Positions 8,739 through 61,773 of a DNA stretch of 64,000 bases are shown piece after piece. Source of the stretch: Escherichia phage EP75. The notes beneath the pieces are model-generated. The model ran no database searches. It was not told the origin of the DNA and worked only from the letters and a program-made list of their open reading frames with translations. The stretch's first letter is position 1. The number at the start of each line of letters is the position of its first letter. Both the position numbers and the translations under genes were made by a program. The stretch is from the sequence record MG748547; one strand, given 5' to 3'.

Positions 8739-9602
8739 ATGACAACTACATTTAATAAAAACGTGAGACTGAATCTGGCTTTTGGTAATGCTGCAGGGGA
8801 CGTGACCGCCCCCGACTTTAGCAAAATTCGCAATCAGGCAAAACTCGTTCTGGAAGAAACTAAAGAACTTCTGGAAGCGGCGTTCTTTGATCATCAAGTG
8901 GTTCTAACATTAGAATTGAACCCTTGTGAAAGTGAGATCCCAACCACTATCGAAGACCGCATGAAAGCCATCATGGATGCCCAGGGTGATATCACTACTG
9001 TCAACGACGGCGTGGCGCATATCGCGGGTTTTAATGGTGATGAGTGCTTACAGCGCGTGTTTGCCTCCAACATGAGCAAGTTTATCCGCTCTGAAGATGA
9101 AGTCGGTCCGGCTCTGGACTATTACTATTCTCGCGGTTTCCCTGATGGGCAATTGCGCGTGGAAGGCGAATTCCCTCAGGCGTGCATCAAAGTTAATGAA
9201 ACTGTTGTTTGGAATGGCAAAGAATATCCTAAAGGAAAATTCCTTAAAAACATGGCCGTTTTCCAAGAGCCTGATTTTTCTGACATGCTGACTAAAACTC
9301 CTTCCCGTCAGATCAACGATATCGTTGCCAGCATGGCGATTGAAGAAGGCCAGGTGTTTATCGATGATCTCAATGGTGTGGCGTTGGTATCCCCGAACAC
9401 ATTGGGTGTAATTCTTTCCATGGCTGTTGAAAAAACTTCTCAACCTGTAGAGATCGACGGGCAAATTGAAAGCTATGTGCCCGCGTTCATCGTGGATGAT
9501 ACCAATATGCCTAAGCTGTGTGGGGTGTGGGGTTCTAATGTTCGTGTTTATGCGAGCACTCCAGTGCAGAACACGGTAACACACCTTTCCCGTATTGATT
9601 AA
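8739..9602 (+). CDS. hypothetical protein (287 aa)
   Basis: ATG at 8739 in frame with ORF 8652..9602; EETKELLEA motif weakly reminiscent of all-alpha NTP pyrophosphatases; occupies the slot where T4 carries gene 43. Confidence 0.45.
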   Translation: MTTTFNKNVRLNLAFGNAAGDVTAPDFSKIRNQAKLVLEETKELLEAAFFDHQVVLTLELNPCESEIPTTIEDRMKAIMDAQGDITTVNDGVAHIAGFNGDECLQRVFASNMSKFIRSEDEVGPALDYYYSRGFPDGQLRVEGEFPQACIKVNETVVWNGKEYPKGKFLKNMAVFQEPDFSDMLTKTPSRQINDIVASMAIEEGQVFIDDLNGVALVSPNTLGVILSMAVEKTSQPVEIDGQIESYVPAFIVDDTNMPKLCGVWGSNVRVYASTPVQNTVTHLSRID

Positions 9603-9626
9603 TATAAACCGTTATTCATTAAACAA

Positions 9627-9652
9627 CAGAGGCTATAATGGCCTCTGTTTTT
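9627..9652 (+). terminator. intrinsic terminator
   Basis: CAGAGGC-TATAATG-GCCTCTG hairpin followed by TTTTT. Confidence 0.6.
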
Positions 9653-9671
9653 GTATTCTAGAGAGGATACC

Positions 9672-10898
9672 ATGAAAGATAAACCGTGTGACATTCCTTA
9701 TTGCGGTGTTCGAGAAGCCAAAATTAAATCTGCACATCCCATGTTAAGTCCATTTCATAAACAACTCGCATACGAATGGATGAGTGAGCGCTATAAGATC
9801 CACGTGAGAAAGGACGTACAGCGTCTTCCTGCTCCTTGGACGGATAATCCCATACTACGGCAGGTCAAGTTCTGCAACGTCCGGAGAGAGCACGACAGGC
9901 AGTCTCTTAACCTGATCAACAATATCGTCAAGAACGACGCTCTGAGCATGGCTGACAAGATGTTCAATTGTGTTCTGTTTCGCATGTTCAATCTCTGGGA
10001 CCCGATCAAGGTGGCGCTCGAGGGTGCTATGACGATTTCAGACTTCGCTAAAATCAACCTCGACGAGACCCGCGCCCGTCTTCAGAAGTTTGAATCAGAA
10101 GGTGGTAAGATATTCACCAATGCATTCAACACAGGTGGTCTAAAACAATGCCTGGCGTTCCCTGAACTTGTTGTCAACCACAAGGAGCAGCGCTTTGGTG
10201 GTATGATGGTTAAGGTACACCGTGTTGGTCAGGGTATCGTTGATGAATTGGATTACAAGGTCGCCAAGAAGCTGGTTGAAGAGAATCCTGGGGAGTACAC
10301 GATCGAGGGCTGGGAGCCGTACATGCCGATGCGTGTTATCCGTTCCCTGAAGGCATTTGTCAACAAGTATCCTGATTACTTCAATGATCTTTTACGTCTT
10401 GACTCTCCGATGAAAGTCTACCAGCGCATGTATGAAGACATTGAAGGGCTTGGACCATTCCTGGCTTATCAGATCTGGGTAGACTTCACGTACATCCCTG
10501 AATATCCATTCAGCGAGAACCATTTCACTATCGCTGGCCCAGGTTGTCGCGCGGGTATTGACCTGATGTTCCTGGATAAGGACGGCATGACTCATGAAGA
10601 ATGCATCTTCTGGGTTCGAGATCACCAGTATCAATTGTTTGCCCAGTATGGTTATGTCCAAGAGCAGTTCTGGTCAGCCGAAGCACCGGAAGATCAGTGC
10701 ATGAATGTCATGCAGCTGGAGAATATGTTCTGTGAATTGAGCAAGTACACCCGCTGTGTGCAGGCTGTTGAGAGAGGGGAAAAGCCCCGTGGCAAGGTCG
10801 GTTACGATGGAGGCGGGGAATACAAAAAGCGGTGCGATGAAGTTGTCCTCAATCGCGGATCGGTCAATTTGTTAGATCGTTTGAAGAAACCTGAATAA
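9672..10898 (+). CDS. hypothetical protein (408 aa), no family recognised
   Basis: ATG at 9672 with GAGAGGA SD; conserved-looking stretches FCNVRREHDRQS and GPGCRAGID; C-terminal Cys cluster. Confidence 0.5.
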   Translation: MKDKPCDIPYCGVREAKIKSAHPMLSPFHKQLAYEWMSERYKIHVRKDVQRLPAPWTDNPILRQVKFCNVRREHDRQSLNLINNIVKNDALSMADKMFNCVLFRMFNLWDPIKVALEGAMTISDFAKINLDETRARLQKFESEGGKIFTNAFNTGGLKQCLAFPELVVNHKEQRFGGMMVKVHRVGQGIVDELDYKVAKKLVEENPGEYTIEGWEPYMPMRVIRSLKAFVNKYPDYFNDLLRLDSPMKVYQRMYEDIEGLGPFLAYQIWVDFTYIPEYPFSENHFTIAGPGCRAGIDLMFLDKDGMTHEECIFWVRDHQYQLFAQYGYVQEQFWSAEAPEDQCMNVMQLENMFCELSKYTRCVQAVERGEKPRGKVGYDGGGEYKKRCDEVVLNRGSVNLLDRLKKPE

Positions 10899-11010
10899 AG
10901 AATCGCTTTACTTCATTCTTCAATAACCCCCTTTCAACGTATATTGACCTCACTTTAACGACGCGCCCATTTAGGGCGCTCAATTTGAACTGAAACAGGA
11001 AGACTACACC

Positions 11011-13032
11011 ATGGCAGAATTTAAACCTTTCGCAACGGCTGTTAATGATAACGTGCTGGCGATGTCCGCAACTGGTCTGTTCATGACCAACGTTGATAAA
11101 GATGCTCTGTGGGATTTGTATTTGGCATCCTTCCCAGCTGGTACCAACCCGATGTACCGCGAACGCACTGAACACGACTGCACCTGCTGTAAACAATTCA
11201 TCCGTAATATCGGCGGCGTTGTGACTATCGATGCTGACCTGAACGTTATCTCGATTTGGGACAACATTGAGTTGGGTAACGAATACGACGTGGTCGCTGC
11301 GGCGCTGTCGACCTTCGTTAAACAACACGCAATCGTCGACGTGTATTTTAACGATTCTGCTAAAGTCGGCCTGTCTCATAACCACGAATCTGGTGTAGAC
11401 GGTAAAATCCGCACGTATAACCATTTCCATACCGAACTGCTCGGCAGCTATGTCCTGCGTTCTGATGCTATCGCATCTAAAAAAGGTGAAATCCGTCAGG
11501 CTATCGAATTATTTGAACGCGGTCTGCGTGAAATTACTCTGGAATCAGCAGAAATCGTTCTGGAATTGATTGATCAGAATTCTTTGTATCGCGGTGCTGA
11601 ACATAAAGCTGCGGTGATGGGCTTCGTAGTAGCCAAGACGGCATATGAAGAAATCCCAGAATCTAACCGTTCTCTGTGGGCATGGCGCACTGGTTATCGT
11701 TCAAACAATCATGTTCCACATGGCATTCGCAACACCGTTATCGGTACTCTGTTGACTGATATCAGTGAAGGCGTGGAACTGGAAAAGGCCGTTAAGTCGT
11801 TTGAAACCAAAGTTGCCCCAGCGAACTACAAACGCCCGACGGCTCTGGTCTCCAAGTCCATGATCGAAAACGCTCAGAAAGAAGTGATTGCTCTCGGTCT
11901 GGAAGATTCGCTGGCGCGTCGTTATGCAGTTTATGACGACCTGACGATCAATAACGTTCTGTTTGCAGACCTGGCTGCTCAAAAAGCGATGGATCCATTC
12001 GCTCAACTGGCCGCCGAAGTGAAAACGCCGACCAAGTCGCTGGATAAAGTTGAAGAGATCGGCATTGACGACTTCCTGAGCAATATCCTGCCGAAAGCGC
12101 ATTCAATGGAAGTGCTGGTTGAAAACTCGCATACAGGAAACCTGATGTCTCTGGTCGCTCCGGCTATCGCAGGTGCTCCTAACCTTTTCAAATGGGGCAA
12201 CGGTTTCTCATGGTCATACAACGGCGAAGTGACCGACTCCATCAAAGAGCGTGTGAAAGCGGCTGGTGGTAAAGTCGACGGGTTCCTCCGTGTGTCTTTG
12301 GCTTGGCACAACAACGATGACCTCGACCTGCATATGTTCTTTAACAATATGGAACATGTGTACTTCCGCGATCGTCGTTCAATGACTGGTGCTCATCTCG
12401 ATATCGACATGAACGGTATGGACGGCATCGACCCGAACCGCTCTCCGGTAGAAAACATCATCTTCACTGATGAAAGAAAGTTGCGTGACGGTGAATATCG
12501 TTTTGAGATTCACAACTACAACCAACGTGAAAAGATCGACGAAGGGTTTGAAATTGAAGTTGAATACAAAGGCACTACGCAACGTTTCAGCCACAATGGG
12601 TTAAAAGACCAGGGGCGCATCACTGCCGTCGTTCTGACTGTTAAAGACAAACAAGTCGTTAGCATCAAGTCCGAGCTGGCGAATGTTGATAAATCCAAAG
12701 AAATTTGGGGCATTAAGACAGCGACCTTCCAGAAGGTACAACTGGTCCTGAACTCACCGAACCATTGGGATGGTGAACAAACTGGCAACAAGCACGTCTT
12801 CTTCATCCTGGAAGGTTGTGCAAATCCTGAAGGTACTCGTGGTTTCTACAACGAATATCTGAAGCCGGAACTGGATAAACATCGTAAGGTTTTTGAAATG
12901 CTGGGTAGTAAAATGAAAGTACAGCCCAACGAAAACCAACTGTCTGGTCTGGGGTTCTCAACGACGCAACGCAATCATGTGTTCATCAAAGTGTCCGGTG
13001 CGTTTAACCGTACTGTAAAAGTCATTTTCTAA
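11011..13032 (+). CDS. large hypothetical protein (673 aa)
   Basis: AGGAAG SD; no Walker A and no polymerase motifs; AAGGKVDGF...NDDLDLH stretch loosely resembles G[GS]...DxD nucleotidyltransferase or KxDG ligase motifs. Confidence 0.55.
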   Translation: MAEFKPFATAVNDNVLAMSATGLFMTNVDKDALWDLYLASFPAGTNPMYRERTEHDCTCCKQFIRNIGGVVTIDADLNVISIWDNIELGNEYDVVAAALSTFVKQHAIVDVYFNDSAKVGLSHNHESGVDGKIRTYNHFHTELLGSYVLRSDAIASKKGEIRQAIELFERGLREITLESAEIVLELIDQNSLYRGAEHKAAVMGFVVAKTAYEEIPESNRSLWAWRTGYRSNNHVPHGIRNTVIGTLLTDISEGVELEKAVKSFETKVAPANYKRPTALVSKSMIENAQKEVIALGLEDSLARRYAVYDDLTINNVLFADLAAQKAMDPFAQLAAEVKTPTKSLDKVEEIGIDDFLSNILPKAHSMEVLVENSHTGNLMSLVAPAIAGAPNLFKWGNGFSWSYNGEVTDSIKERVKAAGGKVDGFLRVSLAWHNNDDLDLHMFFNNMEHVYFRDRRSMTGAHLDIDMNGMDGIDPNRSPVENIIFTDERKLRDGEYRFEIHNYNQREKIDEGFEIEVEYKGTTQRFSHNGLKDQGRITAVVLTVKDKQVVSIKSELANVDKSKEIWGIKTATFQKVQLVLNSPNHWDGEQTGNKHVFFILEGCANPEGTRGFYNEYLKPELDKHRKVFEMLGSKMKVQPNENQLSGLGFSTTQRNHVFIKVSGAFNRTVKVIF

Positions 13033-58928: not shown

Positions 58929-58948
58929 TTTGTTTATTGGAGCACACC

Positions 58949-59620
58949 ATGTCGTATTCGCTCAAAGGGTTGTTGAAGCGCCCTGTTCATCTGTTTGTAA
59001 AACCACCCGCTGTTGAAGGGGAATATCCGGCACGAGGAGAGTTGTATTACGTTAAAGGCTCCAACGGTAGCGGCAAGTCCACTGTCCCTTCCTATCTGGC
59101 GGAGAATGATCCTCAGGCATATGTCGTGGCCCGCGATAGCAAGATCATGCTCACGGTTTGCCCTTCTTATAACATTATCTGTATCGGTAAATATGACAAG
59201 TCTAAGTCTAAAGGTGTTGATTCCCTGAAAGACACCGAGCAGATGTTGTTCGCCTTGTCCATTGCGGACCAACCAGAATATCTGAAATACGACGTGATAT
59301 TTGAAGGCATCATCCCTTCAACTCTTCTCAGTTCATGGATTCCCCGCCTGACGCGCCCACCACGAGAATTGGTCGTCCTCTTCATGGATACCCCTCTTGA
59401 AACATGTATTGCCCGTGTGAAATCACGCAATGGCGGCGCAGAGTTCAATGAAAGCCTGGTGGTCGAAAAGTGGGAGAGAGTTCATGACCACCGCCAACGG
59501 CATAAAGGCTTGTTCCCTACCGTTCCCGCAGGTATGATGAAGTCTCACGGTCTAACAGTAGACCAAGCTGTAATGGCATTCCTCTGTCGTGATTTTGGGA
59601 GTATTGATTGTGGAAATTAA
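58949..59620 (+). CDS. P-loop kinase, polynucleotide-kinase-like
   Basis: YVKGSNGSGKSTVPSYLAENDPQAYVVARD parallels T4 Pnk kinase N-terminus (GCPGSGKST ... NP..Y ... RD); no phosphatase domain; second P-loop kinase next to a gene-1-type dNMP kinase. Confidence 0.55.
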   Translation: MSYSLKGLLKRPVHLFVKPPAVEGEYPARGELYYVKGSNGSGKSTVPSYLAENDPQAYVVARDSKIMLTVCPSYNIICIGKYDKSKSKGVDSLKDTEQMLFALSIADQPEYLKYDVIFEGIIPSTLLSSWIPRLTRPPRELVVLFMDTPLETCIARVKSRNGGAEFNESLVVEKWERVHDHRQRHKGLFPTVPAGMMKSHGLTVDQAVMAFLCRDFGSIDCGN

Positions 59621-60656
59621 AGCAATAAACAACAACGACATGCTGAAACAGGCTGTCTTGGCTATCCGTGAGCACGGGATTGAATCTGATCCAGGTAACG
59701 CGGAGATCAACACCGACGGCACCCGCTTCCTCGATGGTGTGACTATTACCGTCAGTGATATTCGCGACCGCTGGCTTTCCGTTGAAGGTCGCAACTCATC
59801 AGCAATAGCAGCCATCGGCGAAACCTTCTGGGTGCTGTCGGGGCGCGATGATGTTCGCTTCCTTTCTCGTGTGTTACCCCGCGCCGCTAACTTCTCCGAT
59901 AATGGCCACACGTGGCGAGCCGCCTATGGACCACGCCTGTATGCCCATGGCCAGCTGGATAGCGTCATCAACCGCCTGCGCAAGAATCCTAACACGCGCC
60001 AGGCATACCTCACCATCTATGATCCGGCTCTAGACTCAGATTTTGGTCTGGCGAAGTTCAGCCTGAGTGGTGAAGCGAAGACCAAAGACATGGTATGCAA
60101 CCTGGCCCTGCTATTCGCTATCGTTGAAGGTCGCTTGAACCTGACAGTCATCAACCGATCGCAGGATGTTCTCTGGGGTATGAGTTCAATCAACTTCATT
60201 GAGTTCTCTATCCTTCAGGAAGTGATTGCTCAGGTGCTGGATGTTGACGTCGGCCAGTACAAGCTCTTCTCTAACAATCTTCATTACTACAACAATGAAA
60301 TGAGCCAGAAGCAGCTCGGTAAGATCACGAAGGAAACCAAAGTGGAAGCCGGGTTCATCAACTCGTTGATCTACTTCAAGAACGTGACCAACCAGAACCA
60401 TATCCGTGATCTATTCACTGGTGTTCTTCATCACTGTGATATTGGTAGCCCGTGGGAAACTGTCGTCGCCCATCTTAAGAAATACGACGCTGATCGCGGC
60501 CTGATACCACAGATGGCATACTGCTTGTACTGCAAACTGAACGACTACAAGATCAACATGGACATGATCCAAGACCACGGGTTGAACGCAGCACTGCAAC
60601 ATTCACCTGTTGACCGCAAGATCATTGACCCCAAGTTCCTGGAAGGTGTGGTATGA
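59610..60656 (+). CDS. 42: thymidylate-synthase-family pyrimidine hydroxymethylase (gene-42-like)
   Basis: NTRQAYLTIYDP, DMVCNLA (candidate catalytic Cys) and INRSQDVLWGMSSINFIEF align with T4 dCMP hydroxymethylase/TS core; about 100-aa C-terminal extension; GTG 59610 (GGGAG SD) or ATG 59640. Confidence 0.75.
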   Translation: MEIKAINNNDMLKQAVLAIREHGIESDPGNAEINTDGTRFLDGVTITVSDIRDRWLSVEGRNSSAIAAIGETFWVLSGRDDVRFLSRVLPRAANFSDNGHTWRAAYGPRLYAHGQLDSVINRLRKNPNTRQAYLTIYDPALDSDFGLAKFSLSGEAKTKDMVCNLALLFAIVEGRLNLTVINRSQDVLWGMSSINFIEFSILQEVIAQVLDVDVGQYKLFSNNLHYYNNEMSQKQLGKITKETKVEAGFINSLIYFKNVTNQNHIRDLFTGVLHHCDIGSPWETVVAHLKKYDADRGLIPQMAYCLYCKLNDYKINMDMIQDHGLNAALQHSPVDRKIIDPKFLEGVV

Positions 60657-61222
60657 TGTACCCGAACCTTGAATTCTTCACGGGGCGCAAGCGCTCCGGT
60701 AAGGACTTCTGTTTGGAGTCCCTGATCAGTTTTCATCATATTCAGGGTGATATGGATATTCGTCGTCTGTCTTTCTCGGATGAACTACGACGTGTCGCTA
60801 ATTTCATCTATCCATGGCTACCAGCGGAGGTGGAGGATGCTGTGAAGGACGTTCCCTTCGTACACCCTGATAACCCCAAGGGCTTATCCCCGCGCCAAAT
60901 CTGGCTTCATCTGGGCAGCGATACGGGCTTGCGTTATGTACAGCCAGACCTGTTCCTGTCATTCTTTAAACGATATCAACTTCCTTTGGTTGAACAGAAC
61001 CCCAATGTTCATTATATCGTGAGTGATTTGCGTACTCCTCAGGAATATGAATGGGCGCTGAGCACTAAATGTCCTATCACCCGCATTTCAAAGGCGGATC
61101 GTGGTGGTATCATAGAGGATGACATAGAGGCTTTCATTGATAAGATGGAAGTTGATTATGAATTTGTCAATCCGTTTGAAGGTTGGCAACCGTTCGTCAA
61201 ATTTTATAGGGATCGGAAATGA
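60653..61222 (+). CDS. 1: dNMP kinase (gene-1-like)
   Basis: FFTGRKRSGKDF parallels T4 gp1 FLSGVKRSGKDT; ATGA overlap with hydroxymethylase. Confidence 0.7.
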   Translation: MMYPNLEFFTGRKRSGKDFCLESLISFHHIQGDMDIRRLSFSDELRRVANFIYPWLPAEVEDAVKDVPFVHPDNPKGLSPRQIWLHLGSDTGLRYVQPDLFLSFFKRYQLPLVEQNPNVHYIVSDLRTPQEYEWALSTKCPITRISKADRGGIIEDDIEAFIDKMEVDYEFVNPFEGWQPFVKFYRDRK

Positions 61223-61773
61223 TCACAGCAGAGCATATTAAAAGTCTGCTCGAACTTCAAAAGGCCACCAACGTGGCCTACTTTGGGGAAGAGTGGAAGA
61301 ATGTATGGAGTCATAACGCCGTCGTCAACTCCATATATCGTGAGTGGGCAGAGTTTCTTGATGAAACGACTGCTGACTGGAAGGTTTATGGAAACGACAT
61401 CGGGTTTAACCATGCGAACGCAGTCTATGAACTGGTGGACGTGGTTCACTTCATGCTGTGCTTCGTCCTGTTGGACCGTACCAAAGGCGAGATCGAAGAA
61501 GAATTCGAAATCCTCAGTGGTCGCGAATTCACCTTATTTGCTTCGATTGCTGTCGGACATCGAGGTGTGACGTATCGCCTTGGGCAATTCATGAACGATC
61601 CTTGCGTCGAGACTCTCATGTTCTTCCTGTCGGATGCTTGCTTTTACATGGAGATTGACATTGAGACCTACATGCTGGCACACAAACGCAAAAATGATCG
61701 CAATCGGCTGCGTGCTGCTGGTGGCGCGAACTACGATAAGTCCGCAGAAACCCCTCTGACCCTGGAGTTCTAA
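61219..61773 (+). CDS. all-alpha NTP pyrophosphatase (gene-56 dCTPase/MazG-like)
   Basis: AVYELVDVVHFMLCF resembles the T4 gp56/MazG helix; ATGA overlap; substrate cannot be inferred. Confidence 0.55.
   Translation: MITAEHIKSLLELQKATNVAYFGEEWKNVWSHNAVVNSIYREWAEFLDETTADWKVYGNDIGFNHANAVYELVDVVHFMLCFVLLDRTKGEIEEEFEILSGREFTLFASIAVGHRGVTYRLGQFMNDPCVETLMFFLSDACFYMEIDIETYMLAHKRKNDRNRLRAAGGANYDKSAETPLTLEF

Follow-up and report, generated by a model that had tools for sequence, protein, structure and literature searches.

Identity and family of the 408-residue protein

We analyzed a 64,000-nucleotide stretch of Escherichia phage EP75 DNA (sequence record MG748547), called the window throughout, and in it the gene at positions 9672-10898, which encodes a protein of 408 amino acids. 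This gene is almost certainly the Kuttervirus orthologue of gp160 of phage ViI, a clade-1 aGPT-Pplase of the Pfam family PF18723. As the best overall explanation of its function we tentatively propose a cysteine-dependent enzyme that would act on kinase-activated 5-hydroxymethyldeoxyuridine (5-hmdU) in DNA, in parallel to the amino-acid transferase of the same pathway, and that might form thymine. On balance, the sequence evidence argues for a catalytic protein that acts downstream of the kinase as a consumer of 5-phosphomethyldeoxyuridine (5-PmdU); that its product is thymidine is considerably more doubtful.

9672-10898, + strand: coding sequence of 408 amino acids, ViI gp160 orthologue, PF18723 (from the list of open reading frames; ATG at 9672, stop codon ending at 10898)

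The match to PF18723 (HMUDK_hel, "5-hmdU DNA kinase, helical domain"; formerly aGPT-Pplase clade 1) had an E value of 1.9e-83 and a score of 280.5 bits (curated gathering cutoff, 25), and it spanned residues 31-366 and profile positions 5-279 of 281. PHROG 2396, a family of function unknown, matched as well (E 1.2e-156). One deposited relative bears the former name of the PF18723 family as its gene label. A previous reading made from the letters alone (the sequence-only reading) had delimited the same open reading frame (ORF), which was found as described with all of the quoted motifs, and had seen no recognizable family in its product; the two profile matches correct that statement, the aGPT-Pplases being one of three groups that the reading had named for comparison. 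The search of NCBIfam gave no match, and the sole match in a sequence search of the PDB was chance-like (E 1.1). PHROG 800 matched weakly (E 2e-5), which illustrates the spread of the label "terminase small subunit."

Homologues of the protein numbered in the hundreds, with 44-98% identity, so that 9672-10898 is clearly a gene. Full-length identity was 94% to Vi01_130c (orf00160, YP_004327501), which is ViI gp160, named aG/PT-PPlase1 by Lee et al. 2018 (PMC5889632, Table 3). The ViI gene has the same neighbors as the gene in the window, in the order clamp loader, regA, MazG-like gene, gp160, and an ORF of 673 amino acids, and the two proteins differ in allelic positions only, concentrated in residues 113-146. 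Over bases 9000-12000, identity to phages SJ2, Vi01, Matapan, and others was ~96%, placing the window in the genus Kuttervirus (ViI-like, Ackermannviridae). The surface helical segment that holds most of the differences from Vi01 gp160 (residues 113-146, positions 10008-10109) occurs in the same variant in other phages, for example those denoted P0013 and P0027, and this sharing suggests an exchange of mosaic alleles.

When a profile of the 24 orthologues was compared with representatives of 50%-identity clusters, 4,454 representatives passed a threshold of E 0.001 and 2,627 passed one of E 1e-10. Most members of the family are 300-350 amino acids long and lack residues ~161-215 of the 408-residue protein. 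The gp160 family is already catalogued in the thymidine-hypermodification toolkit of ViI-like phages, and the annotation of the gene is corrected accordingly, since its usual deposited label is "hypothetical protein" and sometimes, wrongly, "terminase small subunit." The latter label was also found on 5-hmdU DNA kinases and on some other PF18723 genes, including Vi01_061c (locus L003, 8204-8866), SP10 gp186 (locus L090, 12382-14295), and the homologues H53 and H106.

gp160 and the chemistry of thymidine hypermodification

In ViI DNA, ~40% of T positions carry 5-(2-aminoethoxy)methyldeoxyuridine, or 5-NeOmdU (PMC5889632). In 2018, five mixed lysates containing gp67, gp160, gp226, gp243, and gp247 were reported to make 5-NeOmdU from 5-hmdU DNA (PMC5889632), and in 2021 the steps were assigned with lysate drop-outs and purified enzymes (PMC8989533). 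In that scheme, the kinase gp67 or gp243 makes 5-PmdU; purified gp247, a clade-2 protein that was necessary in the drop-outs, transfers serine onto kinase-treated 5-hmdU DNA; and the pyridoxal-phosphate (PLP) enzyme gp226 decarboxylates the product (PMC8989533). Table 1 of the same study gives reactions to gp67, gp243, gp247, and gp226 and none to gp160, and M6 gp55, which is analogous to gp160, could be omitted (PMC8989533). Because 5-NeOmdU was reconstituted without gp160, the reaction of gp160 remains unassigned in the literature, and none of the papers searched attributes a reaction to a clade-1 protein.

All of the 5-hmdU ends as hypermodified base or thymine (PMC8989533). A clade-1 protein is encoded by all four phages compared in the 2018 study, which states: "How 5-hmdU is converted to thymidine ... 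is still unknown" (PMC5889632, with the comparison in its Table 3). The intermediate of a clade-2 enzyme was converted to thymidine with borohydride in vitro (PMC8989533), and thymine-forming chemistry is therefore feasible. The point of interest in this family is thus its reaction and a possible link to the conversion of 5-hmdU to thymine. To our knowledge, this conversion was described at the polymer level in about 1980, and no enzyme has been put forward for it since.

The sequence-only reading had suggested, from hydroxymethyl-pyrimidine genes elsewhere in the window, that the protein is a DNA-modification enzyme, for example a base-modifying transferase. At the level of the family this holds, given the membership in PF18723, the orthology to ViI gp160, the presence of gp160 among the lysates that made 5-NeOmdU, and the genes for a kinase, a thymidylate-synthase-like (TS-like) enzyme, and a dUTPase_2-type enzyme in the window. 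The specific proposal of a transferase is not supported, as amino-acid transfer has been demonstrated only for the paralogous clade 2 (PF18724; gp247, M6 gp51, PaMx11 gp46), and in ViI this activity belongs to gp247 (PMC8989533).

Conserved residues and domain layout

Conservation across the family was measured in 177 PF18723 representatives of <60% identity, and conservation among close relatives in 24 orthologues. Together with the AlphaFold model, these alignments divide the protein into the following parts:

9672-10151, + strand: N-terminal helical half, family-specific, residues 1-160 (from conservation)
10152-10316, + strand: insertion, residues ~161-215, a beta-hairpin and a helix (from the secondary structure of the AlphaFold model)
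10407-10562, + strand: helix-hairpin-helix (HhH) core, consisting of helix 246-256, hairpin G259-L-G261, and helix 262-272 with F263, Y266, Q267, and D271; the Gly/Pro loop G289-P-G-C292 comes next
10719-10748, + strand: candidate catalytic motif E350-N351-M-F-C354-E355-L-S-K358-Y359 in one helix (from conservation and the clade-2 alignment)
10815-10895, + strand: C-terminal tail, residues 382-408, including C388, poorly conserved (predicted local distance difference test, pLDDT, <50; variable or absent in orthologues)

The motifs that had caught attention in the sequence-only reading correspond to residues 67-78 (FCNVRREHDRQS), 259-272 (GLGPFLAYQIWVDF), and 289-297 (GPGCRAGID), and their apparent conservation was borne out, many of these residues being invariant in the 24 orthologues. 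Across the representatives, R40, R72, D75, R104, F263, Y266, Q267, D271, G289, G291, G295, C354, E355, and K358 were 92-96% conserved, and nearly every ungapped representative kept these residues and Y274. C354, E355, and K358 were each conserved in 94%, with exceptions in only one or two ungapped representatives. Less strict conservation was observed for E350 (81%, with a further 12% Q), N351 (86%), C292 (75%, with 15% Ala), and D297 (40%). In the N-terminal half, the conserved positions were R40, P55-W-T57, K-F-x-N-x-R-R-E-x-D-R (66-76), F-R-M-x-N (103-107), and the loop T-N-A-F-N-x-G-G-x-K (149-158).

The insertion at residues ~161-215, which weakly resembles ClpS, is absent from most PF18723 members outside Ackermannviridae, and most of the 150 best representatives matched the protein in two stretches, ~1-160 and ~215-375.

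The C-terminal cysteines 343, 354, 362, and 388, with spacings of X10, X7, and X25, had been taken in the sequence-only reading for a cluster that could hold a metal. Only C354 (~94%) is conserved family-wide; C362 was found in 9% of the representatives, C343 varies even among close orthologues, and C388 lies in the low-confidence tail that is specific to the nearest relatives. The [4Fe-4S] loop of EndoIII and MutY has the pattern C-X6-C-X2-C-X5-C. Conservation and spacing thus rule out both a conserved cysteine-cluster metal site and an EndoIII-type Fe-S loop, C354 being the only one of these cysteines that is retained. Of the active site and metal site proposed from sequence, what persists is a possible site of another kind, in which a carboxylate/amide pair (E350 and N351) may bind a divalent cation beside a single candidate catalytic cysteine, C354, as the weak alignment with clade 2 described below would place them.

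Structural comparison with clade-2 transferases and DNA glycosylases

In the AlphaFold model (pLDDT 84.7), the 408-residue protein has a helix-hairpin-helix DNA-glycosylase fold. Among full-length structural matches, the glycine:DNA transferase PaMx11 gp46 was the closest; AlkA was also among the matches. The clade-2 amino-acid:DNA transferases (AADTs) of PF18724 include ViI gp247, M6 gp51, PaMx11 gp46/PUGT (PDB 8Z2M and 8Z2N), and Pplase2 of phage SH-Ab 15599. In their structures, the catalytic cysteine (C247 in PaMx11 gp46) attacks C6 of the base, a divalent metal is held by E243 and T244, and W146 serves as an aromatic clamp (PMC11472151, PMC13458397); these active-site residues are backed by mutagenesis (PMC8989533, PMC13458397).

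No PF18724 match to the 408-residue protein was obtained at E up to 1, and BLASTP against ViI gp247 gave no significant similarity (E 2.1). When the clade-1 and clade-2 profiles were compared with hhalign, the local alignments consistently covered the C-terminal halves and left the N-terminal halves unaligned, and global alignment was without success. In these weak profile alignments the following residues of the window protein and of PaMx11 gp46 were paired:

G-L-G-P-F263 with F-G-P-W146, the aromatic base clamp of gp46
E350 and N351 with E243 and T244, the metal ligands of gp46
C354 with C247, the catalytic cysteine of gp46

The motif itself differs between the two clades, clade 1 having C-E-x-x-K where clade 2 has C-K-W-K.

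The fold also raises the possibility of a true DNA glycosylase or lyase that clears 5-hmdU or uracil. Of the features of HhH-GPD glycosylases, a group that the sequence-only reading had named for comparison, the HhH and the G-P-G loop are present, the Asp that follows is the poorly conserved D297, and the residue-level equivalence of these elements to those of glycosylases is presumptive. No match to PF00730 (HhH-GPD) was obtained even at E up to 1, and the HhH DNA glycosylases (MutY/MUTYH, EndoIII/NTHL1, AlkA, OGG) and the queuosine salvage hydrolase QNG1/DUF2419 gave no sequence-profile match. The glycosylases rely on a catalytic Asp and, in EndoIII and MutY, on an Fe-S loop, whereas clade 1 has a conserved Cys-Glu-Lys motif instead, with a single conserved cysteine and no Fe-S loop. 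In addition, the genome would not survive excision of the base at ~60% of its T positions. A glycosylase, or a metalloprotein built on a cysteine cluster, is accordingly highly improbable, and even when all remaining functions are added to it, this group of explanations stays improbable. Glycosyltransferases, the third group named in the sequence-only reading, gave neither a family profile match nor a fold match.

Gene context of clade-1 proteins

Gene neighborhoods were examined in two sets of loci, 80 viral contigs anchored on gp46-type transferases (AADT) and 80 loci anchored on clade-1 genes. A clade-1 gene was carried by 66 of the 80 AADT-anchored contigs, and most of those without one were incomplete; all of these loci were of the TS-like type. 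In 64 of the 66, the kinase gene immediately preceded the clade-1 gene on the same strand (median domain-to-domain gap, 12 nt), and a TS-like gene usually came next. Kinase and clade-1 genes follow each other with a stop/start overlap in PaMx11, Bordetella phage FP1, and Microbacterium phage Kauala; in Rhizobium phage RHph_I72, a 297-nt ORF lies between them. SP10 gp186 is a fusion, with the kinase (PF18748) at residues 35-193 and PF18723 at 313-598 (E 2.4e-44), and the reverse order, PF18723 and then kinase, occurs in the fusions P0123 and L012. By comparison with gp186, the window protein is free-standing and has the extra insertion of ~55 residues. The family is large, and its link to the 5-hmdU DNA kinase is as close as that of any gene of the pathway.

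A strict rule that clade 1 always stands beside the kinase was rejected, as 66 of the 80 clade-1-anchored loci had no kinase within 10 kb. The usual neighbors in those 66 loci were genes for an HD phosphohydrolase, a dCMP deaminase, a MazG-like enzyme, and a primase-helicase. One such contig, of which 39.2 of 41.2 kb were recovered, was followed further; its kinase and TS-like genes lay ~10 kb away from clade 1, and the recovered 39.2 kb contained no clade-2 gene. At the scale of complete or near-complete genomes, the combinations were as follows:

Kinase, clade 1, and clade 2: ViI, PaMx11, FP1, RHph_I72, and SH-Ab 15599 (complete or near-complete genomes)
Kinase and clade 1 without clade 2: Kauala (complete), the 39-kb IMG/VR contig, and SP10 locally
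Kinase and clade 2 without clade 1: MW202655 (complete), and also loci L167 and L168
Clade 1 without kinase: none seen in the complete or near-complete genomes examined

The trio of kinase, TS-like gene, and clade 1 was present in every complete or near-complete clade-1 genome examined, and also in the window.

The tight pairing brings forward an accessory role, in which the HhH protein would bind DNA, offer 5-hmdU to the small P-loop kinase, and increase its efficiency or determine its choice of T positions, with no chemistry of its own. Such a role is implied by the Pfam name of the family and would agree with the adjacency at short distance, with the start/stop overlaps in several unrelated phages, and with fusions in both domain orders. 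It would also fit the observations that phosphorylation by the kinase alone reached only ~23% of 5-hmdU in vitro and that gp160 was dispensable in vitro for the downstream chemistry (PMC8989533). Nevertheless, neither the isolated kinase domain of SP10 gp186 nor free-standing kinases need clade 1 for activity (PMC8989533), MW202655 and loci L167 and L168 have kinase, AADT, and TS-like genes and no clade 1, and the Kuttervirus gene stands ~49 kb from the gp67-type kinase gene. Likewise, a pure binding module would hardly account for the near-invariant Cys-Glu...Lys motif and its alignment with the catalytic cysteine of clade 2. We therefore regard the accessory role as conceivable and rather doubtful.

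The genomes with kinase and clade 1 and no PF18724 bear on a further explanation, a second AADT-like group-transfer enzyme that replaces the phosphate of 5-PmdU by a nucleophile other than serine; the donor could be glutamate in SP10 or another compound in the Microbacterium phages, and in ViI the product would be a minor or transient base that went unnoticed. The fold held in common with clade 2, and the cysteine motif that appears to match that of clade 2, would suit this role, as would the gene content of Kauala-type phages and of the 39-kb contig. In SP10, which makes alpha-glutamyl-thymidine (PMC5889632, Table 3), the PF18723 domain of gp186 is the only HhH-type domain in the scanned 100-144 kb of the 144-kb genome; however, SP10 gp185 (896 amino acids, no Pfam match) could hide the true transferase. 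Moreover, ViI, M6, PhiW-14, and PaMx11 carry both paralogues and are reported to have one hypermodified base (plus thymine where stated), which clade 2 explains (PMC5889632, PMC8989533), and the experiments with gp160-containing lysates reported no extra product. A second group transferase thus appears unlikely.

Several individual loci are recorded here as observations. In SH-Ab 15599, the clade-1 gene immediately precedes that for the dUMP hydroxymethylase; term searches of the 2026 study of this phage found no mention of its clade-1 gene. The complete, circular 38.5-kb MW202655 (L100) has genes for an AADT, a kinase, a TS-like enzyme, and a ParB-like protein and no PF18723 gene. In L167 and L168, the AADT gene is flanked by two kinase genes and accompanied by a TS-like gene, again with no PF18723 gene. 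In the recovered 39 kb of the IMG/VR contig 3300045988_082369, clade 1 is accompanied by a TS-like gene and no PF18724 is present; the PF18748 kinase of this contig forms the C-terminal third of a 534-residue protein (L097, 18308-19909, - strand), of which the 330-residue N-terminal part matches nothing and could be an unrecognized DNA-modifying module. In the Ackermannviridae-like loci L016 (8010-15241) and L087 (4532-10978), the genes for an HMUD2-type kinase, an AADT, and clade 1 form one contiguous block; L016 also has a PF18748-type kinase and a TS-like gene 2 kb from this block. The layout of L016 and L087 suggests two kinase/HhH modules and not one linear pathway.

Proposed function

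A second 5-PmdU-consuming enzyme is the simplest reading of these data, because clade 1 is kinase-dependent and clade-2-independent and shares the fold and the apparent catalytic core of clade 2. In the mechanism that we propose, the 408-residue protein would bind duplex DNA through its HhH, and 5-PmdU made by the gp67-type kinase (58.9-59.6 kb in the window) would be flipped into a pocket formed by the aromatic clamp F263, D271, the probable divalent-metal site (E350/N351), and Cys354. The Cys354 thiolate would then add to C6, the phosphate would leave, and an intermediate with an exocyclic methylene at C5 would form, as in the amino-acid:DNA transferases. The kinase product would in this way have two consumers working side by side, the clade-1 protein and the serine transferase gp247. 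Tentatively, the intermediate would be reduced to the methyl group, giving canonical thymidine, a step that would cover ~60% of T positions in ViI. Formation of thymine is favored as the outcome because ViI hypermodification can be accounted for without gp160, because thymine is the product common to these phages, and because the chemistry is feasible.

Extended to the whole family, this would make the PF18723 proteins the enzyme that turns kinase-activated 5-hmdU in replicated phage DNA into thymidine, with kinase and clade 1 as a self-contained module and the clade-2 transferases as optional branches that lead some of the flux into hypermodified bases, a generalization that we put forward as speculative. 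If it is true, a reaction from 5-hmdU to T at the level of DNA would be a useful tool for manipulating 5-hydroxymethyluracil (5-hmU) in DNA.

Several points weigh against a thymine-forming consumer of 5-PmdU, and the reduction to thymine is the weakest part of the proposal. No assay has been published for any clade-1 protein, and formation of thymidine was not reported from liquid chromatography-mass spectrometry of gp160-containing lysate mixtures (PMC5889632, PMC8989533), which, barring a missing cofactor or an inactive recombinant protein, counts against the proposal. The 408-residue protein contains no detectable reductase-type cofactor domain or reductant-binding feature, and a universal dithiol reductase mechanism with C292 and C354 is disfavored because C292 is conserved in only 75% of the representatives. 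The active-site equivalence between the clades is inferred from a profile-profile alignment that is itself weak (hhalign probability 5-12%, pairwise E 0.002-0.008). A phage with kinase and clade 1 alone would make T by a roundabout route of doubtful benefit, and the tight adjacency and the fusions fit an accessory of the kinase about as well.

Other genes and signals in the window

Three genes near the end of the window would provide the 5-hmdU and its activation, including the predicted upstream partner of the 408-residue protein:

58937-59620, + strand: 5-hmdU DNA kinase, orthologue of ViI gp67 (Vi01_061c), predicted upstream partner (PF18748, E 9.2e-114; likely start ATG 58949, judged by the context of the codon)
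59589-60656, + strand: thymidylate-synthase-like enzyme, presumed dUMP hydroxymethylase supplying 5-hmdU, start codon uncertain (PF00303, E 3.8e-16; Vi01_060c)
61219-61773, + strand: dUTPase_2-type nucleotide pyrophosphatase (PF08761, E 1e-7)

The dUTPase_2-type enzyme may support the swap of dTTP for 5-hmdUTP on the side of the nucleotide pool, by analogy with the dTTPase/dUTPase known in phage SH-Ab 15599 (PMC13458397). The Vi01 coordinates place the PLP enzyme, the second kinase, and gp247 beyond the window. The segment 61773-62303 (+ strand), which directly follows the nucleotide-metabolism genes and precedes a UvsX-like recombinase gene, gave a full-length match to PF24021 ("Phage ACT-like domain"; E 1e-88).

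Upstream of the gp160-type gene, the following were found:

8739-9602, + strand: upstream neighbor, "MazG-like pyrophosphatase" in RefSeq as Vi01_131c (from annotation)
9625-9649, + strand: strong terminator-like hairpin with an 11-bp stem and then a T-run, separating the MazG-like gene from the gp160-type gene (from a consensus scan and sequence reading)
9663-9666, + strand: Shine-Dalgarno-like GAGG, 5 nt 5' of the ATG (from sequence reading)

ATG 9672 is also the start used by the annotated relatives. A longer version of the ORF from TTG 9651, proposed by the ORF finder, is unlikely because this codon sits in the T-tail of the hairpin and ATG 9672 has GAGG upstream. Terminators are annotated at the same place as the hairpin in phages Matapan and Mooltan, and the hairpin suggests either a transcription unit of its own for the gp160-type gene or read-through from upstream; its loop contains TATAAT.

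Profile searches with the product of 8739-9602 gave no Pfam or NCBIfam match, and another record names it a "PAS domain" protein. The MazG-like neighbor was seen at 20 Ackermannviridae loci, and MazG-like genes were found near PF18723 members at 42 other, unrelated viral loci, which points to a recurring association; in Microbacterium phage Kauala, a MazG-like gene lies ~4.4 kb from the PF18723 gene. On the other side of the gp160-type gene, the 673-residue ORF at 11011-13032 (+ strand) matched neither Pfam nor NCBIfam. The window and phage sal1 have it as a single gene and the Vi01 record as two coding sequences (Vi01_129c and Vi01_128c), a split that is probably a frameshift or a difference in annotation.

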